DNA from: a virus
Taxonomy: Duplodnaviria; Caudoviricetes
Virus record (IMG/VR): IMGVR_UViG_3300010376_000037
Span: 1 to 62,388 of that record
Strand: one strand, 5' to 3'
Length of the DNA stretch: 62,388 nt
Every line of letters starts with the position of its first letter. Position 1 is the first letter of the stretch. The position numbers and the translations under genes are program-made. Below, piece by piece: positions 1,861-18,993 of this stretch. A model generated the notes under the pieces. That model did no database searches, was not told the origin of the DNA, and saw only the letters and a program-made list of their open reading frames with translations.

Positions 1861-1899
1861 GGCCCGCTCTATCTGCTCGGCGCACTCGCGAGCCTGCGG

Positions 1900-2133: not shown

Positions 2134-4177
2134 TGTCGACTCCTGTAATCCAGCTCGGCGGCTTCAGCCCCTTGGCGTGCCTTACGATAGCCTCTCTTCT
2201 CTCATCTGGGGTTTTGTTACGCCATTCGCCACGATTTTTCCAAATACTGGCGATGTGCTGCACGAACTTCGAATCGCGCCGTTGCTCGGGCGAGAACAGC
2301 CCGCGGATGCCCTCCCAGGTCACGCTCTGCAGCTCCCTGGGCAAGACCTTCAGATCCTCGGCCGCCCGCCGGTAAGCCTCGGCGTACAGCCCGTACAGCC
2401 CCTTGTTGCCGAGGGTGTCGTTGTTGGCGGCGCCGACCGCGCCCGCCTTGGTGCTGGTGCCGAGCCCGTGGCCGACCTCCAGCGCGCTTGACCCGAGCGG
2501 CTGCAGCAGCGCCGCGGCGATCGCGTGGGTGTCGATGGTGACGTCGCCGTGCGGTGCGTCGTGGGCGATGATGTTGTTGTAGAAGTTCCGGATCTTGTGG
2601 TTCTTGCCCATGATCCGGGAGATCGTCTCCAGGCTGCCGTCGCGCAGCGCCTCCATCGCCTTGGAGATCTCCTTGAACGAGCCCCAGCTCACCTTCCTGG
2701 GTGTCGTCGCCTCCTTCAGCTGTCCTTTGCGCTTGCCGCTCGTGTAGTACTTCGCCGGCACCATCGAGGTGGACCCGAAGTCGCCTTCCGGATTGACGAT
2801 GCGGTAATCGCGCGGGTTGTGGGCCTCGTCGTGCCAACGGGCCCAGACCGACTGCTCATAAGGGTCGGTCAGCTGGCTGTAGTCGGTGGTTTTGAATTTC
2901 TCCTTCAGCCCCTCCAGCTTGTCGATCTGCGCCGGCAGCTGGCGCATCTTGTCGCTGACCGGCAGGCCCTTCGCCTCCCGCTTGCGGATGCGGTCGGCGT
3001 GCGCGAGGCGAACCCCTTGGATGTAGCGGTCAGCGTAATCACGCATCTCCGGGGTAAAGTAAAAGTTGCTGCCCTGCTTGGTGGCTGCCTGATTGATGTC
3101 GAGCAGCCGCTTGGCCAGATCGACGTTCTGGAACCAGTCCTTCTGCGGCGACAGCGACGCCATCATCGCGGCGACCTGTTCCGGCTTCAGGTTGTATTCC
3201 CTGGCCCACTTGTGGGCGAGGCCGTTAGCACCGGCATACCAGAGCTTGGCCCGACCGACGACGCCGGGACCGATGTCCGGATGCGCGCCCATCTTGCGGT
3301 AGAGCCACTTCAGATTGTCGCTGAGGTGGTTGATGAACCGCTCGGTGATGACGTCCGGGTTGTCGCTACGCAGGTGCTGCAAGGCCGGGTAGTTGGCCTT
3401 GATCATCGCCGCGTTCTTGTCCCAGGCCTCTTTCGCCCGCTGCATGCTGTCGAGGCCGATCGACAGCCCGTTGGTGGCGTGCGCGTCGACGCCGCTCTTG
3501 CGCTGCTCGGGGTCCGACGGGATGCGGGTCGAGATGCGCTTGGCGTCCTGGCTCTGGGTCTGGTCGAGCACGCCCCGCAGCAGCGGCGACATCGGCGGCC
3601 CGGCCGCCGCCTGCTGCTGCGCCTGAGTGGCGTCCAGCACCTGCCGCAGCGCGTCGCTGCCGCCGCCATACTCCGGCACCGGAGGCGCCAGCGCCGAGGC
3701 GGCGCGCAGCCGGTTGCGCAGCGAGAGCTGCCCGGTCATGGGGTTCTGGCGGAACTGGGTGACGTCGGTCGGGCCACCGCCACCAGCGAGCATACCCGCC
3801 GGCATGTCTGGCGCGGGCGCGAGTTGCGCCAGCTGCCGCGAGCCCGGCTGCTGCGCCTCGGCGGACGACGGGCCGGTGGGTACGTCCAATAGTGCGCCCG
3901 TCAAAGGCTGCGGCGGCTGCGGCGGCGTCTGCACGCCCGGCGTCGGGCCCATCGGCCCCATCATCCGGCGCAGCGCCTGCTGCGGCGGCCCGGAGATCGC
4001 CCCCAGCCCCGGCTCCGGCATCGGCGGCTGGATCGGCGCCATCGGTGGCGTGGCCGGCGTCTGCCACAGCGGGTCGGTCAGCTTGGCCAGCGGATCGAGC
4101 TGGCGGCGATACTTCTCCAGCGGCCCCTCGGTCTGCGGCACCTGCGGGAACGGAATCGGACCCAGGCGGTCGCTCAT
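2096..4177 (-). CDS. Large protein with Pro/Gln-rich N-terminus and C-terminal helical DNA-glycosylase-like (DUF7178-like) domain
   Basis: Motif series LWY..AAMMASLSPQKDWFQN..KIRNFYNNI..VTIDTH..YAEAYRRAA..PRELQSVTW recalls a conserved phage domain; ATGA overlap with the upstream gene. The CDS is secure, the function tentative. Confidence 0.6.
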   Translation of the reverse strand: MSDRLGPIPFPQVPQTEGPLEKYRRQLDPLAKLTDPLWQTPATPPMAPIQPPMPEPGLGAISGPPQQALRRMMGPMGPTPGVQTPPQPPQPLTGALLDVPTGPSSAEAQQPGSRQLAQLAPAPDMPAGMLAGGGGPTDVTQFRQNPMTGQLSLRNRLRAASALAPPVPEYGGGSDALRQVLDATQAQQQAAAGPPMSPLLRGVLDQTQSQDAKRISTRIPSDPEQRKSGVDAHATNGLSIGLDSMQRAKEAWDKNAAMIKANYPALQHLRSDNPDVITERFINHLSDNLKWLYRKMGAHPDIGPGVVGRAKLWYAGANGLAHKWAREYNLKPEQVAAMMASLSPQKDWFQNVDLAKRLLDINQAATKQGSNFYFTPEMRDYADRYIQGVRLAHADRIRKREAKGLPVSDKMRQLPAQIDKLEGLKEKFKTTDYSQLTDPYEQSVWARWHDEAHNPRDYRIVNPEGDFGSTSMVPAKYYTSGKRKGQLKEATTPRKVSWGSFKEISKAMEALRDGSLETISRIMGKNHKIRNFYNNIIAHDAPHGDVTIDTHAIAAALLQPLGSSALEVGHGLGTSTKAGAVGAANNDTLGNKGLYGLYAEAYRRAAEDLKVLPRELQSVTWEGIRGLFSPEQRRDSKFVQHIASIWKNRGEWRNKTPDERREAIVRHAKGLKPPSWITGVDNGDEESGPDTGE

Positions 4178-6012
4178 GGTACCCCAGCTTTGTGGTCGCG
4201 CAGCGCGTCAGCACCCGCTTCCACCATTGCCGGCAGCCCGTTGCGCCTGACGATGTGGAGCGTGCGCGGATCGAACACCACGTAGTTGTGGCTCACCTTG
4301 GACATCGCCTGCTGGTGATAGGCCCGCTCCTTCTCGATGTCCTTCGGGTCAGCGCCCATGGCGTGCATCATCAGGATGCGTCCCTCCAGGCGGCGCGCCT
4401 CCTCCAAGTGCTGCCGGCTGTTGTGGTCGGCGTAGCGGATGCCGGGGATGCCGATCTTCAGCAGCGTCCTCGCGCCATGCACCGGATCATTGTCGCCGAA
4501 CACATTAACTGAGGCGAGCCGGTGCACCTGTTCGCCCGTGCGGTGTCCGGACTCCTCCTCCTCCATCCCAGCATTGGCGAGCTGGTTACGCACGTAGTCA
4601 CTCTGCTCGGTGAGCGGACGGTCCCAGTCCAGCAGGTGCTCCGGATGCACGTGCAGCTCGCTCTCGTAGAGGCTGCCCTCGGTCTTTCGGAAGTCGTCCG
4701 GGTTCAGCTGCTGTAGTACCACATAGGCCTGGATGTAGCGCTGCGCGGTGCGCAGATCGGCCGGCGAGCCGGTCAGCCGCGCCAGCCCGGCCGTCGTCTG
4801 ATACGACCGCTCCAGCCGCTCGATCGCGGCAGCCGCCGAGATGTTCTCCTCGTCCATCATCTCAGCCACGCCATGGATCGCCAGCGAGCGCGGGTCCATG
4901 CGATCGAATTTCGGCACCTTGCCCTGATAGGTCGCCCCGGCCGACAGGTCGTCGCGGTAGCGCTGCGCCACCTTCTCGTTGCCCGCCTGATAGATGCCGT
5001 GGCCGAACATCTGGGCGCCCTCGCCCGTGCCGATCTTCTTCAGCATGAACTCGCCCAGCGGATTGGCGCGCGTCGGCTCATACTGATGCGGCGTGCCGTG
5101 GTGCACGCTGATCGGCGCAGCGGTCCTGATCAGCTGGCCACTGCCATAGGCCTCCGGACCGGGCGCCGTCGGCACGTTGCCGCGCGCGTCGATCTGCGCC
5201 AGCGCCTGCCGCTGCAGCTGCTCGCCCTGGTCATAGTCGGTGATCGGCTGGCCATCGAGCGGGCTGTACGCCCCGGCCTGCAGGTCGTGCACCATGTGCA
5301 CCACGTCAGGCCGGCCGCCGTTGTGGGCCTTGAAGACCTCGCGGTCCCACCCCTCCGGCGCATACTCGTCGTTGAACGGCAGCCGCGACACCGCGCGGAA
5401 GCCCGACTGGCTGTAGATGTCCGGCAGCACAGTGTCGAACGCATCGAGCCGCCGCCCGCCCTGGCTGGTGGCGAGGTCGAGCATCGAGCGGGTCACGTTA
5501 CGGTAGGGCGCCTTCGGGTGCTTGAAGACGCTGACGATGTCATCGCCCTTCAACGCGAATCCGGCATCGCCCTCCGGCGTGCTGAACATCCGCATGTTGC
5601 GGTAGTCTTCAGCTGGATACTGGGTGACAGCCGCACCGGCTCTGTGCGCCGCCTTAGCCGCGCCAATTGCGCCGTGGAACGCATCAGCTGCTTCGGGATG
5701 CAGCTCGTGATAGGTCGGGTTGGAAGCGTCGCGATACTTGGCCTTCGGCGTGAAGACCGTCTTGACCGGCCCGATGCCTAGACTAGATGCCTCAGTTCTT
5801 CCCGGGCTTCTGCCACTGTAATTCCCTTGTCCTTGGCCAGCTTGTGCGCCAAGCGCTCCAAGGTCTTGTCCGCCTCCCGCGCTTCCTCCGGGGTTACCTT
5901 GTAATGATGCGGCGGTTGCCGGCTCAGCTGCTGGCTGCCCTTGGGCGAGTTGGCCACTAACGCCTCCTGACGTTGCCAGCGGATACGGGATGGTGCCGAG
6001 ACTCTGGCTCAT
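4174..6012 (-). CDS. Polyvalent protein: GNAT-like domain plus ADP-ribosyltransferase-like (ART-PolyVal) domain
   Basis: GFALKGDDIVSVF..GGRRLDAFDTVLPDIYSQSGF..PDVVHM (GNAT-like), then HHGTPH..IGTGEGAQMFGHGIY..GIPGIRY..NYVVFD (ART-like). Confidence 0.68.
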   Translation of the reverse strand: MSQSLGTIPYPLATSGGVSGQLAQGQPAAEPATAASLQGNPGGSAGGGQDLGALGAQAGQGQGNYSGRSPGRTEASSLGIGPVKTVFTPKAKYRDASNPTYHELHPEAADAFHGAIGAAKAAHRAGAAVTQYPAEDYRNMRMFSTPEGDAGFALKGDDIVSVFKHPKAPYRNVTRSMLDLATSQGGRRLDAFDTVLPDIYSQSGFRAVSRLPFNDEYAPEGWDREVFKAHNGGRPDVVHMVHDLQAGAYSPLDGQPITDYDQGEQLQRQALAQIDARGNVPTAPGPEAYGSGQLIRTAAPISVHHGTPHQYEPTRANPLGEFMLKKIGTGEGAQMFGHGIYQAGNEKVAQRYRDDLSAGATYQGKVPKFDRMDPRSLAIHGVAEMMDEENISAAAAIERLERSYQTTAGLARLTGSPADLRTAQRYIQAYVVLQQLNPDDFRKTEGSLYESELHVHPEHLLDWDRPLTEQSDYVRNQLANAGMEEEESGHRTGEQVHRLASVNVFGDNDPVHGARTLLKIGIPGIRYADHNSRQHLEEARRLEGRILMMHAMGADPKDIEKERAYHQQAMSKVSHNYVVFDPRTLHIVRRNGLPAMVEAGADALRDHKAGVP

Positions 6013-6025
6013 GAGCCGGCACCAT

Positions 6026-6936
6026 ACACGCGCTCTTACTCATCGGCACACTCTCGAACTTCGGCTCGCACACGTATCTCGGCACTCGCGCGGTGAACGG
6101 CTCACTCAGGTCTTTCGGCACCCACATTTGTCACGGTTCACTCCGTTCAAGCGGCACCCTCATTCATCACGGTTCACTCTGTTCCTTCGGCACTCGCATG
6201 CAAGCCGGTTCGCACTCCCATAACAGCACTCTCTAACCAAACGGCTGCGTTCAGTTTCTTCGGCACTCACAGCGTCCACAACTCGCTCTTCTGTATTTGG
6301 CACTCACAGCTTCCGCGACTCACTCGTCGGTGGCAGCACCCTCAGGTACGTCGGCCACTCCGCTCAGTCGGAACACTCCACCTGTTCGGTTCACTCTATA
6401 CAGCCGGCACTCACATCCGACCCGGTTCACTCCCCATCTTCAGCGCGCTCTAAACCGTCGGATCGCTCCTCATCGTCGGCGCCCACAAACTTGACGACTC
6501 GCTCCGTTCTCACGGTTCACTCAGCGCCAACGGCTCGCTCCATCACATCCAAAACCTTCCGCCCCCGCGGCTCGCTCCCAGGTTTCGGCACCCACTGTCT
6601 GATCGACTGCTCGACATTCTCGGCACCCGCTGACCGTTCGGCTGCTCTGCATTCTCGGCGCCCTCTACCCGATACGACTGCTCGACAGTCTCGGCGCCCT
6701 CTCTCCCCCACGGCTCGCACATCCTCACCGGTACCCTCTTCTAATCGGCTCGCTCCTCAGTTTCGGCACACACAAACACCGCGGCTCGCTCCGCTATTTC
6801 GGCACCCACAAACTTGACGACTCGCTTACCTGTATCGGCACACACCTTCTTGGCGGCTCGTTCGGGGGTTTCGATACCGTCACTCGACCCGGCTCGCTCT
6901 ATCGTTTCGGCACACTCACGATTTTTCGGCTAGCTC
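6026..6936 (-). ncRNA. TIGR-like dual-repeat array 1 (about 25 units of 36 nt)
   Basis: Plus strand alternates CGGYTCRCTC and CGGCACYCWC separated by 8-nt (occasionally 7 or 9) variable segments, e.g. cggcacactc tcgaactt cggctcgcac acgtatct cggcactcgc gcggtgaa cggctcactc. Strand inferred from flanking genes. Confidence 0.88.
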
Positions 6937-6948
6937 GAATTGTGGACA

Positions 6949-7131
6949 TCATCGATCGTATCCTGCCAGCCATACTTCTTTCTGCTCGTCTGTAAGATCG
7001 TCTGGCGGCACGCGGGGCTGTTTGTCGAGATCGGCCTTGATGCCCATCTTATAGACGCGCTTCCACCAGCTTCGATCGCTCACGTTTCGGCCTGCATCCC
7101 GTCCAGCATGCGTCTGCTGCGGCGCCCTCAC
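6949..7131 (-). CDS. Small protein, possibly Rmf/CrpP-like fold
   Basis: GTGA overlap with the stop of the Nop-domain gene; RVYKMGIKA...QKEVWLAGYD resembles the Rmf-like pattern. Confidence 0.5.
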   Translation of the reverse strand: MRAPQQTHAGRDAGRNVSDRSWWKRVYKMGIKADLDKQPRVPPDDLTDEQKEVWLAGYDR

Positions 7132-8483
7132 GCACGTCGGCCCTGCGGATACTGCGCCCGCGCCTTCGCCTCAGCCAACTCAGGCACCAGCTCCAGGTTC
7201 GGCACCTCCAGCCGATGCGCGTGACCCGGCACATTCTCCAGCACATACGGGAACGGCGGCAGCCGCTGGTAGGTGGTCCAGTAAAGCACCTCATGGAAGT
7301 GCGCCAGGAACAGCTTCACCGCACGCCGCTGCGCCCGCAGGTGAATCCGCGCAGGCGGCAGCATCCCCTGGCTGTACCACTTGAACGCGTCAGTGTTCGG
7401 GCTGAACCGCTTCTCCTCCAGCGACGTCCTCGCCTGCTCGGCATACAAATGCTGCTGGTTGCGCGCCGTCTCCCAGTCCTTCCGCGACTTATACAGCTTG
7501 CCGTAGAAGTCGTCCGGCCGGTTAGACACCTTAACAAAGCTGTCACCGATCAGAAAGCACAGCCGCTTCAGCGACGCGTTCCACGGCCGCTTGGCCAGCC
7601 CCTTGATCACCGCGGCGCGGCTCATGTCGACCTCGCTGGTCTCGCGGTCGACCAGCCGCAGCCGGATGCGCTCGGGGCTGGAGTTCACCGCAGCGCACAT
7701 CCGGAGGAACTGGTCCTCCGACACCTCGGCGCCGCGCCTGCGCTTGCCGCTGCCGTCATCGCTCAGCACCTTGTCCACCAGATCAGTGGCCTTCGCCGTG
7801 CCCAGCCACTTGTTGGTCGGATCGAGCCCGGCGAAGCGCCAGATGTGGCCGACCGTCGGGGCTTTGGTGATGTCGATGTTGGCTAAGAGGCCGGCGGCGA
7901 TCACCGGGCCGATGCCCTTGTTGCTGCGCGCCCATACGCCAGCCGTGTGGCTGCCGCTGTAGTAGTCGAGCGCCGAGCGGATCTGCTTCTCCAGGTGCTC
8001 CTCCTGGCCATACAGCCACTCCAGCACGTCATGCGGCTCGGCGGTCCAGAACTCCTTGCCGGTCTCGGTCGCAGTCTTCTTCGGCTCCGCCAGGGTACGC
8101 ACCTGATGCGCTGAGCGGATGCGGTTCTCCTGCATCGAGTAGTAGGCATCGACCAGGAAGCGCGCCTCGCTCTGGCCGAGCGTGCGGCTGGCCTGCTTGA
8201 GGTCGCCGGTCAGCTTGGCGAGCGGCGTTAAGAGGCCCGGGTCGGCGGTCGCGGTCATCTGCTGGTAGAGCGCATCGAGGCGCTGGAACAGCCCGACCAT
8301 GATCTCGCGCGGCGCGCCGCTGCTGTGGCGCAGGATGTCCATCGCCTGGATCACCAGATCCAGCGGCTCGCTGTCGAGGAAGTCCTCCGGGCCCTGCGGC
8401 TCGTCGGGCGGCGGAGGCGGTGGTGGCGCGGCGCCCTTGCCGCCGCCGTTCTTACTGCGTCCTGTGGTGGTCGGTGTTCTCAC
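7128..8483 (-). CDS. tasA: TasA-like Nop/IS110-C-terminal-domain RNA-binding protein
   Basis: Coiled-coil region (LVDAYYSMQENRIRSAHQVR..EEHLEKQIRSAL), then KGIGPVIAAGLLANIDITKAPTVGHIWRFAGLDP..RPWNASLK..HLRAQRRAVKLFLAH. No RuvC/DEDD or HNH motif seen. RBS AGGAG; flanked on both sides by 36-nt arrays. Confidence 0.85.
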   Translation of the reverse strand: MRTPTTTGRSKNGGGKGAAPPPPPPPDEPQGPEDFLDSEPLDLVIQAMDILRHSSGAPREIMVGLFQRLDALYQQMTATADPGLLTPLAKLTGDLKQASRTLGQSEARFLVDAYYSMQENRIRSAHQVRTLAEPKKTATETGKEFWTAEPHDVLEWLYGQEEHLEKQIRSALDYYSGSHTAGVWARSNKGIGPVIAAGLLANIDITKAPTVGHIWRFAGLDPTNKWLGTAKATDLVDKVLSDDGSGKRRRGAEVSEDQFLRMCAAVNSSPERIRLRLVDRETSEVDMSRAAVIKGLAKRPWNASLKRLCFLIGDSFVKVSNRPDDFYGKLYKSRKDWETARNQQHLYAEQARTSLEEKRFSPNTDAFKWYSQGMLPPARIHLRAQRRAVKLFLAHFHEVLYWTTYQRLPPFPYVLENVPGHAHRLEVPNLELVPELAEAKARAQYPQGRRA

Positions 8484-8498
8484 TATCAGCTCCTATGT

Positions 8499-8900
8499 TG
8501 GGTCACTCTGGGGATTGGGCACTCTCTCCCGGATCGGTTCACTCATGCTCAACGGCGCACTCGCGATTGTCGGTTCACTCTTCTTCATCGGCACCCGCAT
8601 CAAGGGCGGTTCACTCGGGGGCTGCGGCACTCGCCATGCCATCGGTTCACTCTCTTCCTGCGGCACTCTCGGATCATTCGGTTCACTCCGGGCTGTCGGC
8701 ACACGCGGCGATCGTGGTTCGCTCCATCTCATCGATGCACTCAAGCTCGTCGGCTCACTCCTTGTTCTCGGTGCCCTCCAGCACGCTGGTTCACTCACGG
8801 CAATCGGCACGCACCAAGCTTTCGGCTCGTTCGGGTGGGACGGCACTCGCGTCAAACACGACTCGCACCCAACTCACGGCACCCTCAGTTTGCACGGCTG
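8499..8900 (-). ncRNA. TIGR-like dual-repeat array 2 (about 11 units of 36 nt)
   Basis: Regular 18-nt period: cggttcactc ttcttcat cggcacccgc atcaaggg cggttcactc gggggctg cggcactcgc catgccat cggttcactc; lies directly upstream of the Nop-domain gene. Confidence 0.9.
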
Positions 8901-8921
8901 GGTTCTGTTGGGCTGAGTTGG

Positions 8922-8949
8922 AGCTTACACGCGGCGCCCTGCGAGTCAA
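8922..8949 (-). promoter_or_regulatory. Putative sigma70 promoter for array 2 and tasA
   Basis: Minus strand TTGACT-16 nt-TAAGCT about 20 nt upstream of the first repeat. Confidence 0.5.
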
Positions 8950-9137
8950 CTGTAAATCTTAGCCTATCTTACCCCATCAGCCTCCTGGCAAGGCCTGATA
9001 GGTCGATAGAAAGACAGCAACGAAGCAGAATAGCTAGCTAAGGCACGGCACCCAGCAGCCACAGCACCAGCGCCGACGACCCCACCGCCAGCAGCAGCAC
9101 CGTCACGCCACCTACCGCAACAACGAACCAGACCGCA

Positions 9138-10838
9138 TCACACATGCACCACAATCGCACGCGCCGAAGCCGACAGGTGCACCACATACTCTTGCGTCTG
9201 GTCCATCGATCCCACCGCGTCCGCCGAATGTATCAGGTCAAACTCCTCCACCAGCTGCACCGCAGCACCGAACCGCAGCGTCACATCCGTCGCGTCACCG
9301 CCCAGCTCCTGCGCCGAGCGCCACAGCGGCACGATGAACCGCCCGTCCGAGGCCTGATACAGATCCCAGTCAGCGTCCGCCGGCAGCCCCTCGACGCTGA
9401 TCTCCAGCTTGCCCGGAGCAAACGTCCGGGTGCTGTTGCCCGGATCGGCGCACACCTCGCAGAGGTTGCGCAGCGCCGCTGCCGCCGGCCGCGGGTCTTC
9501 ACCGCCATGCATCGGATACAGCCCGCACAGGTAGACCGTGCCGTAGTCGAACAGCGCGTACCACCACAGCCCGACCTGCGGATCGAGCTTGCCGCAGCGG
9601 AACAGCGTGGTCAGCGTGTAGTAGGCGTCCCGCTCTCCGTCCCATCCGGACTGATCGGGTTTGTGCCCCTGCGAGTTGTAAAGGGTCGGGTGGAACTCGG
9701 TGAGATCTCCGGGGTGGTTGTCGTAGGCGAGCCGGATGCCGCTGATGTATTCGCTGACGGAGTATCCTGTATTGGGGACGTCTGGACTGGCGGGGGGATA
9801 GTAGTGTCCGTTACAACGCGCCATCGCTGCATTAATAGCGCCCATGTATTCGCCGCAGTAGCCGGTGATCCAACCCTCCGGATGAGGTGTTCCCGCGACA
9901 ATGCTTGGGCCAAGTACTCCCGCGCGATCTGCTGAACCCCACAGCTCATCCTGGATCGCCTTCGTGACGTCGACCGAGACTTCCCCCGACCCAAAGTTGG
10001 TGTTGGGCTCGTTGAGTCCTTCCAGCCACCTGATAGCACAGGCCGGATCGTTAGCGAGTGTTAACATTGATGACACATCCGCAGGGCTGCCATTCGCGCC
10101 GACACAGATCGACACCTCGGTGCCCGGCAGTGCGGCGACCACCTGCGTCAGCCACGGCTGCTGTATCTGCTCGCGGCCGTTGTAGTGGTATTCGCGGATG
10201 CGGAACGCGAAGCCGCTCTCGTCCGTTATCCAGTTTAACCCGGCGATAACGCTGTCGGGCTGGTAGTCGGCCGGGTAGCTGCCCCAGACGTTGCCGCTGT
10301 CGAGGCTGCTGAAGGTGTTGACGCCGAACAGCTCGACCAGCGAGTGGATGCGTTTGGCCTGCGTGCCGGTGCCGGGGCTCGGATCGGGGCCGGGCGGTCC
10401 GTCGGCGTTGGCCACCGTGTAGGTCATCGGCACGTCCTTGCTGGTGCCGACGCCGCCGGGCGGCACGTCATAGCCGCGCACGATCAGCGTCACCGGCCCG
10501 TTCGCCAGCTTGCTGCTGTCGAGCTGCAGGCTGTAGCGGCCGTCCACCGGCTGGGCGTCGTCGGCGCCCTTCTGGTCGCCCACCCAGGCAGTGATGTTGA
10601 CCCAGGTCGCGCCGGCCAAGCCGGTGACCTCGACCACGCCCGAGAGCGTGCTGCCCTCGGCCGGGCTGGCGACGGTCAGCGTGTCGGGATCGGGGCTGGG
10701 ATCTGGCGGGACCGGCTGGCCGCCACCTTCCAGCGCCGAAACGCGGCCCTCCAGGTCGGTCACCCTGGCGGCGAGCGCGTCGAACTCCTCCTGCGTCGGG
10801 ACATCGACGCCCTGCGGCGTCACGGGTGATTGGGCCAT
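9138..10838 (-). CDS. Ig-like domain plus clan GH-A-like glycoside hydrolase
   Basis: Short coiled coil, Ig-like TVASPAEGSTLSGVVEV segment, then LEGLNEPN (acid/base), NGHYY and LTEF (nucleophile); ATG 10838 follows GGGGAG. Confidence 0.65.
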   Translation of the reverse strand: MAQSPVTPQGVDVPTQEEFDALAARVTDLEGRVSALEGGGQPVPPDPSPDPDTLTVASPAEGSTLSGVVEVTGLAGATWVNITAWVGDQKGADDAQPVDGRYSLQLDSSKLANGPVTLIVRGYDVPPGGVGTSKDVPMTYTVANADGPPGPDPSPGTGTQAKRIHSLVELFGVNTFSSLDSGNVWGSYPADYQPDSVIAGLNWITDESGFAFRIREYHYNGREQIQQPWLTQVVAALPGTEVSICVGANGSPADVSSMLTLANDPACAIRWLEGLNEPNTNFGSGEVSVDVTKAIQDELWGSADRAGVLGPSIVAGTPHPEGWITGYCGEYMGAINAAMARCNGHYYPPASPDVPNTGYSVSEYISGIRLAYDNHPGDLTEFHPTLYNSQGHKPDQSGWDGERDAYYTLTTLFRCGKLDPQVGLWWYALFDYGTVYLCGLYPMHGGEDPRPAAAALRNLCEVCADPGNSTRTFAPGKLEISVEGLPADADWDLYQASDGRFIVPLWRSAQELGGDATDVTLRFGAAVQLVEEFDLIHSADAVGSMDQTQEYVVHLSASARAIVVHV

Positions 10839-10985
10839 GTTCTTCTCCCCCAAGCCGGTAGATGTGAGCCTCTCATAGCGATCGCAGCGCCGGCACAAGC
10901 GCGCGCCCATGAAATGTGACCATTCATGACCACGCGTGAAACAGATGCAGTAGCTCAGCGCAGGCGGCAGCCAGCGCAACCCATA

Positions 10986-11156
10986 CTACCACCAGCCGAA
11001 GCGCGGGCCGCCGAAGACGCCAATCAGCAGCAGCACGAGCAGCACGGTAAGAACAATTGCGAGCGGATTCCCGTAGGAGATGCGTCCGCCATACCAAGCG
11101 CCACCGCCACCCAACAGGAGGAGGATGATAAGGACAACGAGGATCAGCGTGATCAT
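10986..11156 (-). CDS. Small two-helix membrane protein (DUF3309-like)
   Basis: Manual translation MITLILVVLIILLLLGGGGAWYGGRISYGNPLAIVLTVLLVLLLIGVFGGPRFGWW. Confidence 0.7.
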   Translation of the reverse strand: MITLILVVLIILLLLGGGGAWYGGRISYGNPLAIVLTVLLVLLLIGVFGGPRFGWW

Positions 11157-11168
11157 CGAAACGTTTTG

Positions 11169-11462
11169 TCAGCCCTCGCGCGCAGCGGGCTGCGGACAGT
11201 TGTCGCCGCAGGGAAACGCCAGCGGGCTGTCGCCGTGATAGGCGAGGCCGCCGTCGTTGTGCTGGGCGATGCCAGGATACTTCGCCTTCACCTTGCGCCT
11301 GATGGTCGCCAGCTCGCTGCTGGAGGCGTGCTGCGCGCCGCGCGCCAGGGCGTTGCGGGCGTGGGCTTCATCACTCAAAGGATAGGCTCGCTTGCCGGGT
11401 ATCGCGAATACGCTGGATGGCAACTCGCCGCGTCTCTCCGCTGTGAGTCTGGCCACTTCCAT
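11169..11462 (-). CDS. Conserved phage protein (DUF6582-like)
   Basis: LTAERRGELPSSVFAIPGKRAYPLSDEAHARNALAR motif. Confidence 0.65.
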   Translation of the reverse strand: MEVARLTAERRGELPSSVFAIPGKRAYPLSDEAHARNALARGAQHASSSELATIRRKVKAKYPGIAQHNDGGLAYHGDSPLAFPCGDNCPQPAAREG

Positions 11463-11621
11463 GCTCCTTCACATATGTCGCCATCCGATCCTATTTCTTC
11501 CGCGGAGACCTGCTTTTTGCCGGATTTTTACGGTTTTTCGCTCGTTTAGGTGGGGATTTCTGCGGCTTCGGCCCTCCACTCAGTCCCTTCGGCATCATTC
11601 CGGTGTTGATCACGGCCATCG

Positions 11622-11837
11622 CTAGCCTCCTGCGAGCCGCGCCTGGGCGGCGTCGTGCGCGAACTGCCGCATCCAGGCCGCCCGCAGGCGCCGCGCCGCC
11701 TCGGCCTGTCGCGCGCGCTCCGTCGGGTTCTCGCGCCGCTCGTCAGCGCGGCACACCCGCGAGCACATCGTCCGGGTCTGCTTGCCGATCAGCAGGAACT
11801 CAGCGCCGCAGCGGGCACAGACATGCCGGCGCATCAC
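11622..11837 (-). CDS. Small zinc-finger protein
   Basis: CARCG..CSRVC; GTGA coupling to the upstream gene. Confidence 0.6.
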   Translation of the reverse strand: MMRRHVCARCGAEFLLIGKQTRTMCSRVCRADERRENPTERARQAEAARRLRAAWMRQFAHDAAQARLAGG

Positions 11838-12046
11838 GTCCGCCCGCCCCCTGGCGTCTGTTGCACCCGGTAGAGATCAGCCGGCGACTTGGTGAACGCC
11901 GGGTCGATGCTGCGGGTGCGGATCACCCGCTCGCCCTGCACCACCTGATAGGGATTGTTCGCCGGCACGTAGGCCTCCGGCCCTTCGGTGTGCGCCTCCG
12001 GCATGTCGGGGAACGCCTGGATGGCGGGGCCGCCCTCACCGCTCAC
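11834..12046 (-). CDS. Hypothetical protein
   Basis: Coupled by GTGA overlaps on both sides. Confidence 0.6.
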   Translation of the reverse strand: MSGEGGPAIQAFPDMPEAHTEGPEAYVPANNPYQVVQGERVIRTRSIDPAFTKSPADLYRVQQTPGGGRT

Positions 12047-12606
12047 GCGCGCCGCCCTGGCTGCGGTGGCGGCGGCTGCCGCGGCGGGCTCGGTGCTCCA
12101 GGTCGTTGCGGCGTCGGCGCGTGGCGCGGGTCAGCCGCTCGCTGCGGCTGCGGCGCTGCGGGCGCCGCCGGGGCTGCTGCAGGCGCCGCCTGCTGCGCCT
12201 GCGCGGCAGCTGCCCGCTGCCCGCTGCCCGGCGCCGCAACCAACGCCTCGGCGTCTTCCTGCGTCATCCCGAACTCACTGATCAGGCAGGCCAGCACACG
12301 CGGCTGTAAGGCGCCGTCGTCGCGTGCGATCACGAGACGTGCCTTGACGATCTCGGCGATGTTCGGCGCGGCCTCGTCCATGTGCTGGCTGATCACCGCA
12401 CCCGCATAGCCGCCCGCCAGGGCGACGTTGGTCAGCTCGGGCGGGCCGTCGGGCTGGCCATCCGTCGTGTAGGCGGCCTCGCGCTGGATGAAGCTGGCGG
12501 CCGGCTCGGCGTTGCGATGCGCAGCGACGCCCGCCTCGCCCGCGTCCTGCTGCCGCTCGCCGATGGTGCGCGCCTGCTGCCCGCTCAGTTGCTGGGTGTG
12601 TGACAT
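12043..12606 (-). CDS. Hypothetical protein with Pro/Ala-rich tail
   Basis: Strong RBS (GAGGAGGGGGAG) before ATG. Confidence 0.65.
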   Translation of the reverse strand: MSHTQQLSGQQARTIGERQQDAGEAGVAAHRNAEPAASFIQREAAYTTDGQPDGPPELTNVALAGGYAGAVISQHMDEAAPNIAEIVKARLVIARDDGALQPRVLACLISEFGMTQEDAEALVAAPGSGQRAAAAQAQQAAPAAAPAAPAAPQPQRAADPRHAPTPQRPGAPSPPRQPPPPQPGRRA

Positions 12607-12760
12607 GGCTCCCCCTCCTCAGGCGGTGGCCACGCGATCTCGCCCTTGCCGTTGCACGTCCAGCAAACGCGGCGAACGAGGCGCGGCGGGTTGTGCTGCC
12701 GAATAATGACATACTGCCGCCCGTTGCACGACGGGCAGATAACCGGCGTGCTGCCCGGCA

Positions 12761-13282
12761 TCAGCGGCGGGCTTTGGCCTGTGGCCGGTCAGGCTCCTCC
12801 CTTTCGGCACGCTCTGGGGTCGCGGCGTAGTTCGGCGCGTAGCCCTGCCGGAACGCCGGGTGATCGGCCGACGAGGCGCGGCTGCGCTCCTTATTATAAG
12901 TGGCGATCATCGCCTGCCACGCCTCGTGCGGCAGGTGCTCGGGCCAGCCGGCCTGCTGCGCCTCCCACAGGTGATGGCCGAGCTGCGGGATGCGCGGATA
13001 GCCCAGGCTGTAGCGGGGGCGCTCATCTGAGTCAGAACTCTCGCTGATGGCGGCTCGCTGTTCGTCGACGGCACTCGCATGGGCAACGGCTCGCTCTTTC
13101 GCCTCGGTACGCTCCGCTTCAACGGCCCAATCATGGGGTTCGGCACGCTCTTTCATCACGGCTCGCTCGCATGTTTCGGCGCTCTCTGAGGTACCGGCCA
13201 GTTCTGGCGCTACGGCACGCTCGCTCATCACGACCCGCTCCCTGATTTCGCTACCATCCTCCGTCGCGGCTCGTTCACTCAT
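12761..13282 (-). CDS. ORF whose N-terminal half is read through array 3
   Basis: ERA hexad repeats arise from the 18-nt period; the C-terminal half (YSLGYPRIPQLGHHLWEA..) looks like an ordinary protein. Confidence 0.4.
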   Translation of the reverse strand: MSERAATEDGSEIRERVVMSERAVAPELAGTSESAETCERAVMKERAEPHDWAVEAERTEAKERAVAHASAVDEQRAAISESSDSDERPRYSLGYPRIPQLGHHLWEAQQAGWPEHLPHEAWQAMIATYNKERSRASSADHPAFRQGYAPNYAATPERAEREEPDRPQAKARR

Positions 13283-13348
13283 CTCGTTGCTGTCGGACCC
13301 GGCGACTCGTTCCTATCCTTCGTTGCCATCTGATCTCGCGACTCGCTC
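13015..13348 (-). ncRNA. TIGR-like array 3 (about 9 units, more degenerate)
   Basis: cggctcgctg ttcgtcga cggcactcgc atgggcaa cggctcgctc tttcgcct cggtacgctc cgcttcaa; same period and orientation as arrays 1 and 2. Confidence 0.8.
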
Positions 13349-13503
13349 ATCGCTCATGCGGCCCTAGTGGATCATGCGGCCCGAGGTGAAAGGCCTGACA
13401 TCTGTCAGTGATGCGCGGCCGGTGACAGCATACCGGCACCCAATGCCGCAGCACCACCGAGGCCTGCCAGTGACACACCAACACCACCAAGATCACCGTC
13501 GCA

Positions 13504-13990
13504 TACAACGCTCTTCCAATTCGGCACTCACATCGAGTTTCGACTAGCTCACCTCATTCGTTACCATCGTGAGTCGCGGCTGCTCTCCTCATTCGGCACC
13601 CTCCTGGGCAGCGGCTGCGTTCCGACGGTTCGATGCTGTCAAAGGTAACGACTCACTCGCTTTCTTCGGCTCTCACAAAGAAGCCGGCTCGCTCTCGTTT
13701 CCCGGCACTCTTACACCCAGCGGCTGCTCGCCCGGTTCGATGCGCTCGAACTTTGCGGCTCGCTTCTAACTACGTCACCATCCTGCTCACGGCTCGTTCA
13801 GGCTTGCTGGCACACTCACGCTCCCCGACTCGCTCTCACCCTACCGGCACTCTCCCCTACGACGGCTCGCTGGTTGCGCATGAACGCGACAGCCAGTCGC
13901 CTGAGCACGTCGCAGCGCACCCGACGCAGCGCCCGATCGCGACCGCGGCTCGCTCGTTTGACTCGGCACTCGCCCACATCCCGGCTCACC
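13504..13990 (-). ncRNA. TIGR-like array 4 (about 10 units, 13504-13872) plus a detached unit (13946-13990)
   Basis: cgactcactc gctttctt cggctctcac aaagaagc cggctcgctc tcgtttcc cggcactctt; detached unit cggctcgctc gtttgact cggcactcgc ccacatcc cggctcacc. Confidence 0.8.
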
Positions 13991-14192
13991 GGGTCGGGCT
14001 GGTGCCGGCCCGGCGCAGCCAATGGTCACACCATCCCCCGGGCGCGATCAAACCCTCCACCAGATGACAGCTGTGCGGCTTGCGGAAGTGCACGCAGCGG
14101 TCGCAGGTCATCGAGGGCGATGACGCCTTCACCTGATACTGCACGCTGTGCTTGCTGAGCTTTTGATGTCTCGGCCGAGGCCGATCATTCAC
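13986..14192 (-). CDS. HiPIP-like (high-potential iron-sulfur protein) domain protein
   Basis: VQYQ...CDRCVHF...CHLVEGLIAPGGWCDHW: four Cys with the HiPIP GWC signature. Confidence 0.7.
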   Translation of the reverse strand: MNDRPRPRHQKLSKHSVQYQVKASSPSMTCDRCVHFRKPHSCHLVEGLIAPGGWCDHWLRRAGTSPTR

Positions 14193-14431
14193 CCCGGAAT
14201 GCCGTGCGGTCCGTGATCGCTGTGCGCGGTCGCCGGCATCTTGCCGCCACCGCGGCTGATGTGCGGCGGCCCGGCGCGCTCGTGGTCACCCAGCGGCTCA
14301 TGGCTGACGCTCTCGCCACCGCGGCCGCCGTTCACCTCGGCCAAGCTGTCGCAGCCGAAATCCTTGGCCGGCATGATGCCGCCGCCCATCGCCATGTTCT
14401 TGCGCTGCCGGATTTCCTCGTTGTAGGCCAT
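14189..14431 (-). CDS. Hypothetical protein
   Basis: TGATG and GTGA coupling to neighbours. Confidence 0.65.
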   Translation of the reverse strand: MAYNEEIRQRKNMAMGGGIMPAKDFGCDSLAEVNGGRGGESVSHEPLGDHERAGPPHISRGGGKMPATAHSDHGPHGIPG

Positions 14432-14577
14432 CACTTACTCCCCTTCTTGCGCTTCTTCGGCACCCCGGCTGTGCGTAGCGCGGCAGCGACAGCCTGTCGC
14501 TGCGGATGCCCGGCCTCGACCATCTCACGTATGTTGCTAGTGATCACCTTGCGGCTTTTGCCCTTGGCGAGCGGCAT
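14431..14577 (-). CDS. Small basic conserved phage protein (48 aa)
   Basis: Manual translation MPLAKGKSRKVITSNIREMVEAGHPQRQAVAAALRTAGVPKKRKKGSK. Confidence 0.75.
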   Translation of the reverse strand: MPLAKGKSRKVITSNIREMVEAGHPQRQAVAAALRTAGVPKKRKKGSK

Positions 14578-14589
14578 CGCAGCATTCCC

Positions 14590-14658
14590 AAAAAAAAGGC
14601 GGCGCACTCGTCAGGGAAGGTGTCCGTCACACAGCTGGAGAGAGGTGAATGCGCCGCC
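14590..14658 (-). terminator. Long-loop stem followed by T8; terminator or attenuator candidate
   Basis: Minus strand GGCGGCGCA...TGCGCCGCC followed by TTTTTTTT. Confidence 0.4.
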
Positions 14659-14776
14659 AGCTTACCACGTCTGTCCCCTCGCCGCAGCGAGCGGGAAGAA
14701 GTGATGCTAACACACACCAGCAGCGAGCAAAACGCAGATTGCGGCAACCACGATGAGAACCCCGAGCACCGGGTCG

Positions 14777-15109
14777 TCAGGCATCGTAGGCGGGACGGCC
14801 CGAGCGCTCGCGCTCGGTCTCCTCGATCGCCTTGACGACCATCGGGTAGGCAGCGCGCAGCATGTCGCTGAAGCGCTGTCCGGTGTGCGACATGACGTCC
14901 TCGTCGAGCGAGGCGGCGGCGAAGATCCGCGCCAGCATGGTGGCGATCGCCCACATCGCGGTGGAGTTGGTGATGCCGCCGAGGCGCTGTGCCATGACGT
15001 CGAAGGCCTTGGTCAGGTGCATTACTTGATGCTCGTCGACCCCGACCATCAAGGCGTCCTCGATGCGGTCGTCAGGCATAGCGTACTGACTAGGCATGCG
15101 GTCATTCAT
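14777..15109 (-). CDS. Hypothetical protein
   Basis: Co-oriented and overlapping the upstream stop. Confidence 0.65.
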   Translation of the reverse strand: MNDRMPSQYAMPDDRIEDALMVGVDEHQVMHLTKAFDVMAQRLGGITNSTAMWAIATMLARIFAAASLDEDVMSHTGQRFSDMLRAAYPMVVKAIEETERERSGRPAYDA

Positions 15110-15314
15110 AGCCCGGCTTGATCGTGGTGTTCCAGTAGTCCTGGGTGTGCGGCAGGGTCTGCTTACCGAGCTGTTTGGCGCGGGCGTTGGCCTGGGCGCG
15201 GCTCAGCTGCTCGCCTGTGTCCTTGGCCTGCGCCTCGGCGAGGCCGCGCAGCGCGATGTGGCGCCGGATGCGCTCGGGCATGCGAGCTGGCTTGAACGGC
15301 CTGGGCGGTGGCAT
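15102..15314 (-). CDS. Hypothetical protein
   Basis: TGATG coupling with terS. Confidence 0.6.
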   Translation of the reverse strand: MPPPRPFKPARMPERIRRHIALRGLAEAQAKDTGEQLSRAQANARAKQLGKQTLPHTQDYWNTTIKPGYE

Positions 15315-15802
15315 CAGGGCTGCTCCTCGGGCTCGGGCAGGCTGTGGATCGGCCGGGCGATGACGCTGATCTCGGGCGCGGCGTCGCTCGGGCCGTTGTT
15401 GATGTTGATGCTGAACAGCGCGGCGGGCTCGGCCGACTCCCCGCGCTCGCGCCAGCCGCCGCGAGTTTTGGCGTAGAAGATCGACATGGTTTTGTCACCG
15501 TTGAGCGCCGACTCGACGATGCCGCCGAGGATGCGGGCGTCCATCGCCAGCTTGCCGTGGGTCAGCTCCCAGGCGAAATGCCGCTCCAGCGTGGCGATCG
15601 GGATCGCCATGATCACCGAGATCGATTCATTGATGAAGCCACAGGCGACCAGGGTCATCACCCTGGCGCGCTGTGCGTCGGTGGCTACGAACGGTGCCTG
15701 ACCCTGCTGGCCGGGCGCGGCGCCCTTGCCGGGCGGTATCCCAGCCTTGGCCTGACGTGGCGGCCGGTGCGCGGCCCTGACGTTGTCCAGAATACGCGGC
15801 AT
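15314..15802 (-). CDS. terS: Probable terminase small subunit (HTH)
   Basis: TDAQRARVMTLVACG..IPIATLERHFAWELTHGK..ALNGDKTMSIFYAKTRGGWRE matches a common TerS-like pattern; start uncertain. Confidence 0.68.
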   Translation of the reverse strand: MPRILDNVRAAHRPPRQAKAGIPPGKGAAPGQQGQAPFVATDAQRARVMTLVACGFINESISVIMAIPIATLERHFAWELTHGKLAMDARILGGIVESALNGDKTMSIFYAKTRGGWRERGESAEPAALFSININNGPSDAAPEISVIARPIHSLPEPEEQP

Positions 15803-15844
15803 GCGCTGTGATTTATGGCGGCACCCACCATCACACGCCAAGCC

Positions 15845-16147
15845 TCAATCGCGCGGCGTGTTGGCGAACGCCACGCGGAAGCGGTGGAAGGCGTCGATCA
15901 GGTCGTCGCGGTCGTAGCCGCAGCGGGTCATGTGCGACTGCGCGTGGGGGTCGAAGTCGTCGCGCGCTTGGTCGAGGCCCCAGCCCTGGATGCACTCCTC
16001 GGCCAGGGCGAGGTCGCTGTCGCCTTGGAGCGCCTCGGCGACGAAGGTGGGGTCATTGCGCCCGTCGGCCCACAGCCAGCTGCTGGCGATGGCGTCGGTG
16101 AGGTCGCGGTGGTTGCGGTAGAGGCTGTTGCCGAAGTCGTAGGTCAT
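15845..16147 (-). CDS. Hypothetical early protein
   Basis: ATGA coupling within a leftward operon. Confidence 0.65.
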   Translation of the reverse strand: MTYDFGNSLYRNHRDLTDAIASSWLWADGRNDPTFVAEALQGDSDLALAEECIQGWGLDQARDDFDPHAQSHMTRCGYDRDDLIDAFHRFRVAFANTPRD

Positions 16148-17151: not shown

Positions 17152-17856
17152 ATGACCTATGACATGACAGCGACGGTTCAGTGGCCCGAAATCGTGCGGC
17201 TGGACAGCGTGCTGCGGCAGCTGAGCGAGCGCGATCGCAGCTTCGCGATGAGCCTGCAGGCGCAGCAGTCCCACCGTTACCTGAGCGAGAAGCAGCTGTT
17301 CTGGGTGCGTGAGCTGACCAAGCGCGGCGAGGCGAAGCTTTCGCAAACTTCCCAGCCTTCCCAGGCTCCGGCAGCGCCGGCCTCCACCAGCTTCAGCCGC
17401 ATCGTCGAGCTGTTCGGCAAGGCGGGCCGGCGCGCGGTCGTCGTGTTCCGTACTCAGGACGGCACTGACTTCCGCCTGTCCATCGCGGGTGAAGGCAGCC
17501 AGCAGCCGGGCAGCATCAACGTGACCGACACCAGCCGCGGCTACGACAACCGCACGTGGTTCGGTCGCATCGGCACCAACGGTGCGTGGCAGCCGAGCCG
17601 CAAGCTGGATGCGCGCACGATCGCGCAGGTCGAGGCGGCGCTGACGGCGTTCAATGCTGACCCGGCGAAGGCCGCGGCGGCGTATGGCCACATGGTCGGC
17701 AGCTGCTGCTTCTGCTCACGCGAGCTGACTGACGAGCGTTCGGTGAGCGTCGGTTACGGTCCGATCTGCGCGGATCGGTTCGGCCTCCCTTGGGGCGAAG
17801 TGCCGGCGAAGGCCGACGCGTCGATCGACAAGCTGACCTGCGACAGCCCGTTCTGA
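17152..17856 (+). CDS. DUF6011-like zinc-binding domain protein
   Basis: C-terminal CCFCSRELTDERSVSVGYGPICA. Confidence 0.75.
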   Translation: MTYDMTATVQWPEIVRLDSVLRQLSERDRSFAMSLQAQQSHRYLSEKQLFWVRELTKRGEAKLSQTSQPSQAPAAPASTSFSRIVELFGKAGRRAVVVFRTQDGTDFRLSIAGEGSQQPGSINVTDTSRGYDNRTWFGRIGTNGAWQPSRKLDARTIAQVEAALTAFNADPAKAAAAYGHMVGSCCFCSRELTDERSVSVGYGPICADRFGLPWGEVPAKADASIDKLTCDSPF

Positions 17857-17905
17857 AATTAACCCGGGGAGGCGCAGGCCTCCCCACAACACAGGAGCGT
17901 ATCCC

Positions 17906-18661
17906 ATGAGTGAGACCCACGAAGCCCACCGCGAAGCGATTGCCCGGCGCATCCGCGCCTTGCTGAACCGCACCGAGGAAAACGGCTGCACCGAAGCGGA
18001 GGCGCTGGCGGCGGCGGAGAAAGCGCGTGCGTTGATGGACGCGCACCGGCTGTCGCAGTCGGATGTCGAGATCGAGGCTGAGCCGATCGCCGATGAATGG
18101 ATCGAGCGCGGCACTGAGTATCGGCTGACGCCGGCTGATAAGTGCCTGTGGGCGATCGACCACTACTGCGGCGTGAAGACGTGGTACCAGTTCAAGGAGA
18201 ACAGGAGGGGTGCCTGGGCCCGCCATGTCCGCCTGCTCGGGCTCAAGAGCGACGTCGAGATGGCGGTGTATCTCTACAGGCTGATCGAGCGCGCGATCGA
18301 GACCGAGTCCGAAAGGTACAATCGTCGCTACGGGCCCACGGCCACGCCGCACGGCACGCTGCGGCGCAACACCAGCTTCCGCGTCGGCATGGCCAACCGC
18401 ATTGCTTCGCGGCTGAAGGCGATGGCTGATGCGCTGGAGGCCACAACGGTGACCGGCAGCGGCACTGCGCTTGTGGTGGTACGTGGCCACGTGGTGGATG
18501 CCGCGCTCGATCGCCTGGGCATCCGCTTCAGCGGCAGCCTGTCGGGACCGCGTGCCCGCGACCGTGACGCCTACGACGCCGGCCACGCGGCGGGTGACCG
18601 GGTCAACCTGAGCCGCCCGGTCGGCGGGGCGGCCACTGGCCGCATCGGGAGGGGGGCGTGA
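17906..18661 (+). CDS. DUF2786-like protein
   Basis: RIRALLNRTEENGCTEAEALAAAEKARALMDAH; C-terminal AYDAGHAAGDRVNL. Confidence 0.75.
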   Translation: MSETHEAHREAIARRIRALLNRTEENGCTEAEALAAAEKARALMDAHRLSQSDVEIEAEPIADEWIERGTEYRLTPADKCLWAIDHYCGVKTWYQFKENRRGAWARHVRLLGLKSDVEMAVYLYRLIERAIETESERYNRRYGPTATPHGTLRRNTSFRVGMANRIASRLKAMADALEATTVTGSGTALVVVRGHVVDAALDRLGIRFSGSLSGPRARDRDAYDAGHAAGDRVNLSRPVGGAATGRIGRGA

Positions 18662-18993
18662 GCCCCCAGCCTCCCGGCCCCTACGCTGACCTGGGGCCGC
18701 CGATCGATCCGGAGCAGCACGACCGGCCGCCGCTGCGGATCGTGCGGATCAGCGAGCTGAGCGAGCGCAACGGGCTCGGCGAGACGGTGTTCCTGGTCAC
18801 CGCGATCGGCCCGCACAGCAAGGAAGAAATGCAGCTTATCGTTACAATTAATCCACGAACTGGCGCGATCACGCGGTCGGCGATCAACCTCCGCCAGGGC
18901 GGCGGATTTATTACCGCGGACCCGGAGCTGCTGCCGGGCAACTTGGCGGATATTTTGAAAAGTATTGCGACCGATCCGAGGCCTGCACCTTGA
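18658..18993 (+). CDS. Hypothetical protein
   Basis: GTGA coupling. Confidence 0.55.
   Translation: MSPQPPGPYADLGPPIDPEQHDRPPLRIVRISELSERNGLGETVFLVTAIGPHSKEEMQLIVTINPRTGAITRSAINLRQGGGFITADPELLPGNLADILKSIATDPRPAP

Follow-up and report, generated by a model that had tools for sequence, protein, structure and literature searches.

Can guide arrays that lie several kilobases from the only tas gene of a phage still belong to its tandem interspaced guide RNA (TIGR) system? This question is raised by the virus record IMGVR_UViG_3300010376_000037 (Duplodnaviria; Caudoviricetes), all 62,388 bases of which form the window analysed here (CheckV completeness 81%; G+C 65.6%; PHROG matches to a helicase, a head-closure protein and tail-fibre proteins). 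Between positions 13015 and 13990 (region C) it carries about 20 dual-repeat TIGR units of the 36-nucleotide (nt) type, oriented as in the arrays that flank tas and located 4.5-5.5 kb upstream of this gene, within a block of co-oriented genes. We consider it likely that region C comprises three blocks of genuine TIGR units (9 + 10 + 1; C1, C2 and C3 in Table 1) in a dispersed multi-array TIGR-TasA locus of a soil phage, and that their guides are used by TasA. We rate such a locus as an organisational variant of the known TIGR-TasA system.

When the sequence is written in rows of 36, plus-strand words of the CGGCTCGCTC and CGGCAC types alternate every 18 bases in all three blocks, and the arrays on either side of the tas open reading frame (ORF), A and B, have the same pattern, the same 36-nt period and the same strand. 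A 36-column matrix trained solely on these two tas-flanking arrays (matrix 1, threshold at least 12 bits) matched the whole window 47 times on the plus strand and never on the minus strand, with 11 matches within 13051-13981 and three at 1788-1895; 30 first-order Markov simulations gave a mean of 0.67 matches per genome over both strands. Because a matrix trained on the window is circular, matrix 2 was built from the repeat columns alone of 182 units of related phages, with no window sequence in the training. It matched the tas-sense strand 38 times and the other strand once (null 0.1 for a 62-kb genome), and its eight matches in region C averaged about 22 bits, as compared to 19.6 for array A and 18.0 for array B. 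An initial annotation, made from the letters alone, had reported the same repeats, period and strand in these three blocks, and both the rows and the two matrix scans of the genome bear this out. The repeat variants that it listed, CGTTGCCATC, CGCTACCATC and CGATGCTGTC, are present in region C as well.

A repeat-by-repeat walk gave mean 10-nt scores of 6.7 for C1, 5.6 for C2, 7.0 for A and 9.0 for B. We confirmed that the distal arrays are genuine TIGR-type arrays, somewhat more degenerate than B and close to A in mean score. Positions 13131-14314 are present with zero differences in a second soil metagenome from a different study, and the region is therefore not an assembly artefact of one sample; over the compared pieces the second metagenome is identical, with no unit gained or lost. 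No Rfam family matched window positions 1-16000.

The dual-repeat TIGR array of Faure et al. (2025; PMC12045711) has two alternating repeats of 8-12 nt, spacers of about 9 nt and a tandem unit of about 36 nt. Region C likewise has alternating repeats, 10 nt long, with spacers mostly of 8 nt, in tandem units of about 36 nt that are conserved far above chance, and all 18 steps in C1 measure 18 nt. On the tas strand, the clade consensus unit is an 8-nt spacer, GAGAGUGCCG, a second 8-nt spacer and GAGCGAGCCG. The blocks begin and finish with a GAGCGAGCCG-type repeat, which is therefore the edge repeat, and C1, C2 and the solo unit C3 have edge-type repeats at both ends. In the tas sense, every repeat ends in CCG (CCA in the related loci L008-L010) immediately before a spacer, and box C followed by the spacer is the published order (PMC12045711). 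All matrix matches in the window and in L001-L009 are co-oriented with tas. We take the minus strand as the RNA sense because the repeat ends fit the placement of box C and the arrays share the orientation of tas.

The solo unit reaches 27.1 bits with matrix 1 and 27.0 bits with matrix 2, and the TGA stop of the gene upstream of it falls inside its first edge-like motif. Three edges in C2 have a 9-nt, GAGCAGCCG-like form that is also present in array A, where three consecutive 35-nt units carry a 9-nt edge. The spacers have a G+C of 0.50 in C1, C2 and C3, 0.44 in A and 0.52 in B, against 0.656 for the genome, a property used by neither matrix; across the 306 units of the clade, spacer G+C is about 50% and spacer positions show no third-position G+C periodicity. 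The low value suggests selection for easily opened targets, or a source of spacers with lower G+C.

The protein that could use these guides belongs to the TasA type. Its ORF matches phrog_4285 (E 3.7e-37), and a profile of the protein with ten homologues matched TasR in the PDB (9MTY, which is TasR according to its paper; 1.5e-21) and TasH (3.6e-11), with the IS621 and ISCro4 recombinases reaching only about 1e-3 (IS621, 1.2e-3). An AlphaFold2 model has a mean predicted local distance difference test score (pLDDT) of 74, above 80 over most of residues 150-410, and the ten best Foldseek matches are all TasR or TasH chains (probability 1.00, target template modelling score 0.49-0.63). In this model, residues 1-31 have no regular secondary structure (pLDDT below 50 in 1-19 and 24-26) and residues 32-130 form helices only. 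No nuclease family matched the protein, and its sole Pfam match is a weak one to Transposase_20 at 187-228. Residues 1-130 are disordered or helical, with no nuclease match, which places the protein in the TasA type; its Nop-domain fold is related to TasR and TasH and, more distantly, to the IS110 recombinases, and no HNH or RuvC domain lies N-terminal of Nop. Of the 11 Tas homologues, at least 90% have Y413 and all 11 have H421; both residues lie in a C-terminal loop (pLDDT below 50 at 413-420). From this position they may be equivalent to Y289 and H296, the processing residues of SpTasH (PMC13421893).

A family search and tblastn with the 11 Tas homologues found no second tas in the 62,388-base record, which is 81% complete, so that the missing part could hold one. 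The absence of a Nop gene next to the distal arrays, as stated in the initial annotation, holds: the record has a single tas, 4.5-5.5 kb away. As the arrays carry no Tas gene of their own, this TasA is the only candidate user of about 59 guides (25 units in A, 11 in B, 9 in C1, 10 in C2, one in the solo unit and 3 in mini-array D). These guides lie in five or six blocks spread over at least 12 kb, with unrelated genes between them. The earlier figure of about 55 guides was close, but the four arrays it assigned them to were too few.

Is the distal position a peculiarity of this phage? In IMG/VR we found 12 loci with a Tas of 44-66% identity, of which L002, L005 and L011 were left out of the counts because they are parts of the L001, L004 and L010 phages (identical units). 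No closer relatives were present in the phage GenBank set, by DNA or protein, or in genome contigs, and a metagenome scan returned the known contigs and short pieces of at most 67% identity. According to tblastn of the window genes, gene order is kept in L001, L003, L004 and L007. In the direction of tas it runs g14777, g14189, g13986, array, g12761, g12585, g12043 and, further on, one or more arrays and tas, and beyond tas it continues with array, g4174, g2096, g1900 and array.

An array lies between the g13986 and g12761 homologues in all four loci that hold both genes, with 8 matrix matches in L001, 11 in L003, 7 in L004 and 21 + 3 in L007; L006, L008, L009, L010 and L012 have no homologues of the distal flanking genes and are uninformative for this site. 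Because the same site is occupied in 4/4 informative relatives, it is ancestral and not a recent stray. Mini-array D also has syntenic counterparts, with 8 units in L001, 16 in L003 and 12 in L007, located after the g1900 homologue, and the window and its four syntenic relatives have 47 and 44, 58, 25 and 80 matrix matches, respectively. Multiple arrays separated by genes are the normal state of this lineage. This finding speaks against the suggestion that the distal arrays are recent off-shoots, and no empty site of the kind looked for in syntenic phages exists among these four loci.

The initial annotation also considered that one array might have been split by gene insertion. This does not agree with an ancestral site, nor with the 155-nt gap between C2 and C1. 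The gap has no coding signature (ORF 13347-13508 failed the filter on third-position G+C, GC3), no significant RNA fold (z-score -0.35) and no detectable homologue, including among the small L007 proteins. Two decayed 18-nt repeats with GGCCG at their ends lie within the 38 nt of the gap nearest to C1. We also considered the gap as the remnant of a small membrane-protein gene that precedes the L007 array; the tblastn homologue of that gene was found at 11001-11153 instead, and DNA alignment was uninformative.

These data fit a model in which the arrays would be transcribed from the minus strand within long leftward transcripts of the gene block. Co-transcription with this block is the simplest reading because the arrays abut genes on both sides, share their direction and carry no promoter-like or terminator-like sites. 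TasA would then cut the array RNA within the edge repeats and bind, in trans, tigRNAs of about 36 nt with two 8-nt spacers, of which one would pair with each DNA strand, as reported for this family. The complexes would most likely bind DNA targets and block transcription or replication without cutting; we favour binding and repression over cutting because TasA lacks a nuclease domain. Other TasA proteins have been shown to act as RNA-guided repressors (bioRxiv 10.64898/2026.09.09.750476). For the region C guides, we infer transcription, processing, TasA loading and repression.

Several observations weigh against this account. The loop repeats of region C vary at two near-invariant positions in 7 of 19 cases, as compared to two variant loops in about 36 units of A and B, and the 36-nt unit length is not kept in several C2 units, which measure 35 or 37-38 nt. 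The arrays showed no promoter-like or terminator-like sites and genes follow them directly, whereas an intrinsic terminator after the array belongs to the description of dual-repeat TIGR arrays. The Tyr-His spacing of TasA is one residue off that of SpTasH, and the presumed equivalence of the two pairs is one of position in the C-terminal loop. In addition, no convincing DNA target was found in the window and the related loci. The target search covered 306 units from 10 genomes, allowing up to one mismatch and gaps of 0-6 in each of four spacer geometries, and a second search used gap 0, at most two mismatches and four scrambled controls; the 18-49 matches per geometry span the same range as the scrambled controls. 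An apparent excess in one geometry ('rcB.A', gap 0, at most one mismatch, 8 matches) vanished at two mismatches.

The irregular repeats could mean that the distal arrays are decaying relics that once served TasA, whose units no longer load and persist in a neutral intergenic stretch. The variant loops, the irregular C2 unit lengths and the decayed array ends would fit such decay, and 57-68% of the distal repeats exceed the 99.9% quantile of the genome background, as compared to 82-91% in A and B. We nevertheless consider it unlikely, since eight region C units score like the best proximal units, C1 matches A in mean repeat score, one unit is kept in different phages and regular arrays occupy the site in 4/4 relatives. 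Spacer G+C is held at 0.50 with no drift to 0.656, and 13 of 20 region C units have A as the base immediately following the loop repeat (0.56 in the clade). Canonical units have GAG...CCG in both repeats, and the variant loops, found in the three C1 units at the RNA 5' side and in 4/10 C2 units, take the form GA(U/C)(G/A)G(Y)(R)NCG, differing at positions 3 and 8 with the edges unchanged. In five of the seven, positions 3 and 8 can still pair (U-A, U-G or G-U). Of the seven loops with A at position 8, five have U at position 3, which is suggestive of covariation, in two lineages only. Comparable variant loops also occur in arrays A and B (two) and in both the proximal and the distal arrays of L001.

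Another explanation would make the repeats protein-coding, the 36-nt period being a 12-residue repeat (E-R-A-x3-E-S-A-x3) in the N-terminal part of the gene 12761-13030 product. The frame of this gene is indeed open upstream into the array in 5/5 genomes, the window, L001, L003, L004 and L007 (94, 82, 123, 111 and 239 codons), and the nearest in-frame ATG in the window lies 42 codons upstream, inside C1. However, the would-be third codon positions of the spacers have a G+C of 0.46-0.62, as compared to 0.8-0.9 in genes, and the frame is not maintained in C2, where units of 35 nt and 37-38 nt shift it. Array B, too, is open in all frames, which shows how cheaply open frames arise at this G+C content. 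In L007 an ATG follows the array, and the open frame begins only after a stop codon partway through the 21-unit array. Third-position G+C revealed no coding signature in 12761-13986 beyond the flanking genes. We thus find this explanation very improbable, and at most the last few array units would be translated. Regular short repeats can also act as iterons or partition sites, and a further possibility is that the repeats function at the DNA level instead of as RNA guides, such as by offering repeated binding sites to a protein of the phage or its host. Genes of the ParB type accompany some TasA loci (PMC12045711), but no ParB-like gene was found nearby, and the two alternating 10-nt repeats with 8-nt variable spacers are those of the published dual-repeat TIGR architecture. 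The strict orientation relative to tas in 9 distinct genomes and the variable, fully turned-over spacers, which would be purposeless in binding sites, make this option scarcely credible.

The content of the distal site turns over fast, apparently through duplication of units and half-units and exchange between arrays. Spacers are almost wholly different between distinct genomes. Over all genomes, three pairs of units nevertheless agree at 14 or more of 16 spacer positions, where 0.05 are expected under a column-permutation null, and the units next to these near-identical pairs are unrelated. For example, the window distal unit at 13051 matches an L001 unit at 14/16 spacer positions, and the L001 unit lies after the g1900 homologue, a non-syntenic site. 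Identical 8-nt half-spacers are also in excess when spacers of the same type are compared: we observed 8 A-A identities (null mean 0.86) and 9 B-B identities (1.59), as compared to one A-B identity (1.75). Neither same-type count was reached in any of 300 permutations, and identity within and between arrays is about 5-9 times above chance. Of the 17 same-type pairs, 7 join different genomes, 6 of them through non-syntenic arrays, and the other 10 are intragenomic, with 6 confined to one array and 4 spanning two. In several pairs one spacer is common and the other spacer of the unit is wholly different.

Because half-spacers are shared and near-identical units occur in non-syntenic arrays, units seem to duplicate and move, which agrees with the earlier proposal that they may spread. 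Such a pattern suggests that modules of less than one unit are duplicated and exchanged, and is unlike slow point divergence; alternatively, half-spacers may be shared because they were taken up convergently from a common target. Within the window, two array A units 323 bases apart (6459-6504 and 6782-6827) have an identical spacer A beside a rare edge variant and a wholly different spacer B, a local example of half-unit duplication. A more speculative idea, to which we give a low probability, is that TIGR units or half-units are actively copied between dispersed arrays and co-infecting phages via single modules of 18-36 nt, by a mechanism other than ordinary homologous recombination. Copies of one guide would then be expected in non-syntenic arrays among unrelated neighbours, with independent assortment of spacers A and B. 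TasA or its ribonucleoprotein could take part in such copying, given the kinship of Tas with the IS110 RNA-guided recombinases. If true, module copying would be the missing 'adaptation' route of TIGR systems, and tigRNA processing could also control neighbouring genes, with arrays lying within polycistronic messages and running into the adjacent reading frame.

Arrays with no effector gene beside them are familiar from orphan CRISPR arrays, which are used in trans by distant cas loci. CRISPR is a different system, and TIGR has no adaptation genes; the distal arrays here share the co-oriented block of their effector and occupy a conserved site. Within the TIGR family, arrays have been placed beside tas or inside its coding sequence (PMC12045711; PMC13421893; bioRxiv 10.64898/2026.09.09.750476; 10.64898/2026.08.11.744272; 10.64898/2026.10.21.760802). 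Faure et al. (PMC12045711) described arrays 'upstream and/or downstream' of tas, mostly of 5-15 units, within 5-kb flanks; the distance from tasA to region C is at or beyond these flanks, and none of its blocks is adjacent to tas. The dual-repeat TIGR-TasA systems of that report (example FpTIGR) resemble the present one in being phage-borne with arrays on both sides of tas, but here a single tas has about 59 units at five or six sites over at least 12 kb, box C is CCG and not CCA, and the box D side is AG and not UG.

SpTasH of the Salicola phage CGphi29 shares the 8-nt spacers, the 36-nt tigRNA (predicted in our case) and the phage origin. Its C-terminal Tyr/His pair processes pre-tigRNA (PMC13421893), and the putatively corresponding residues are conserved in the window TasA; TasH has an HNH nuclease and cuts DNA, whereas the window protein has only a disordered or helical N-terminal part. 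The intragenic tigRNAs in tas coding sequences (Xu et al. 2026, bioRxiv 10.64898/2026.09.09.750476) overlap an ORF without breaking it, as do units of C1, into which the 12761-13030 frame runs; here the overlapped gene is not tas, and translation of the array part is putative. Clustered box C/D snoRNA genes also have a Nop-domain partner, guides flanked by box C/D and a multi-unit transcript (PMC12045711), but snoRNAs guide RNA methylation with fibrillarin and L7Ae, whereas the phage TasA would be guided to DNA. The word 'orphan' does not occur in the accessible text of PMC12045711 or of the 2026 TIGRFinder preprint, and a text search found no paper that joins TIGR array terms with it; TIGRSafari, the positional plot of the preprint and table S1 and fig. 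S4 of the Science paper may include such loci.

The origin and growth of TIGR arrays and the gain of spacers have been called an 'enigma' (PMC12045711), and the 2026 survey still treats them as open. This lineage is of interest mainly as concrete material for studying how TIGR arrays change. It is a natural comparison set: each genome has five or six array sites that are conserved, the window and four syntenic relatives contain 25-80 matrix-scored units each, spacers have turned over completely at protein identities of about 50-70%, and the units and half-units that are shared form a small, statistically clear group. An inherited layout of this kind may help to show how arrays change. About 23 of the 59 units lie more than 4 kb from tas, so that at least a third of the guides can escape surveys confined to its near flanks. 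Some 60-80 guides may be available to one small TasA, and this bears on what phage TIGR systems regulate.

Table 1. Features of the proposed dispersed TIGR-TasA locus and open frames running into arrays in related loci. Background refers to repeats above the 99.9% quantile of the genome background.
Feature	Position	Strand	Repeats above background	Description
C1	13015-13348	minus	13/19 (18/19 above 99%)	8 units and 1 decayed unit, exact 36-nt phase
Gap, C2 to C1	13349-13503			155 nt; apart from the two decayed repeats, non-repeat sequence
C2	13504-13872	minus	12/21 (18/21 above 99%)	10 units, 21 repeats, repeat-to-repeat steps of 16-19 nt
Stretch, solo unit to C2	13873-13945			73 nt, repeat-free; no repeat scores; neither promoter-like nor terminator-like sites
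Solo unit C3	13946-13990	minus	2/2	edge-like repeat, 8-nt spacer A, loop repeat, 8-nt spacer B, edge repeat
Array A	6026-6935	minus	41/50	about 25 units, directly downstream of tas
Array B	8499-8904	minus	20/22	11 units, directly upstream of tas
Mini-array D	1788-1895	minus	6/6	3 units after gene 1900-2133; absent from the initial annotation
tasA	7128-8483	minus		451-residue Nop-domain Tas protein without nuclease domain
Gene 13986-14192	13986-14192	minus		small, conserved, directly upstream of the distal arrays; coding-type GC3; marks the syntenic site
Gene 12761-13030	12761-13030	minus		conserved, directly downstream of C1; tblastn homologues in L001, L003, L004 and L007
Open frame into array, window	12761-13282			gene 12761-13030 family
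Open frame into array, L001	1994-2503			gene 12761-13030 family
Open frame into array, L003	7261-7893			gene 12761-13030 family
Open frame into array, L004	7458-8063			gene 12761-13030 family
Open frame into array, L007	1674-2654			gene 12761-13030 family

By third-position G+C, all convincing genes within 1-17 kb are on the minus strand. Gene 12761-13030, downstream of C1, has no Pfam, PHROG or Atlas match. In the window there is no ATG, GTG or TTG between the array and its conserved part, and its translation may begin within the array or use an unusual start codon. The next gene on this side (12585-12761, minus strand) encodes a 58-residue product with a sub-threshold match to the DnaJ CXXCXGXG zinc finger (E 1.4e-6; 28.9 bits, cut-off 32.7), and this small zinc-ribbon protein is kept beside the distal array in three relatives. 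Gene 9138-10979 (minus strand, 613 residues), located between array B and the group of conserved small genes, matched neither Pfam nor PHROG and lacks homologues in all related loci; it and the genes at 10986-12046 account for the larger distance from tas to the distal array in the window phage.

The Tas proteins and arrays of the relatives show some further variation. A Nop-domain insertion of about 70 residues (approximately 225-295) is present in TasA of the window, L001, L006 and L012, and absent in L003, L004, L007-L010 and L016. In the source metagenome, a 65,291-base contig of another phage matches only window positions 7814-7916, a conserved part of tas, at about 88% identity, so a second TIGR-TasA phage lives in the same soil. 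L010 carries a 27-unit array at 17563-18695, 6.7 kb downstream of tas, which is inverted relative to tas, the sole inverted array seen; its 20.9-kb locus holds no second tas. In L004, the longest open frame of tas (9617-11080) runs through the whole upstream array, in the E-R-A / E-S-A frame, and into the conserved Tas.

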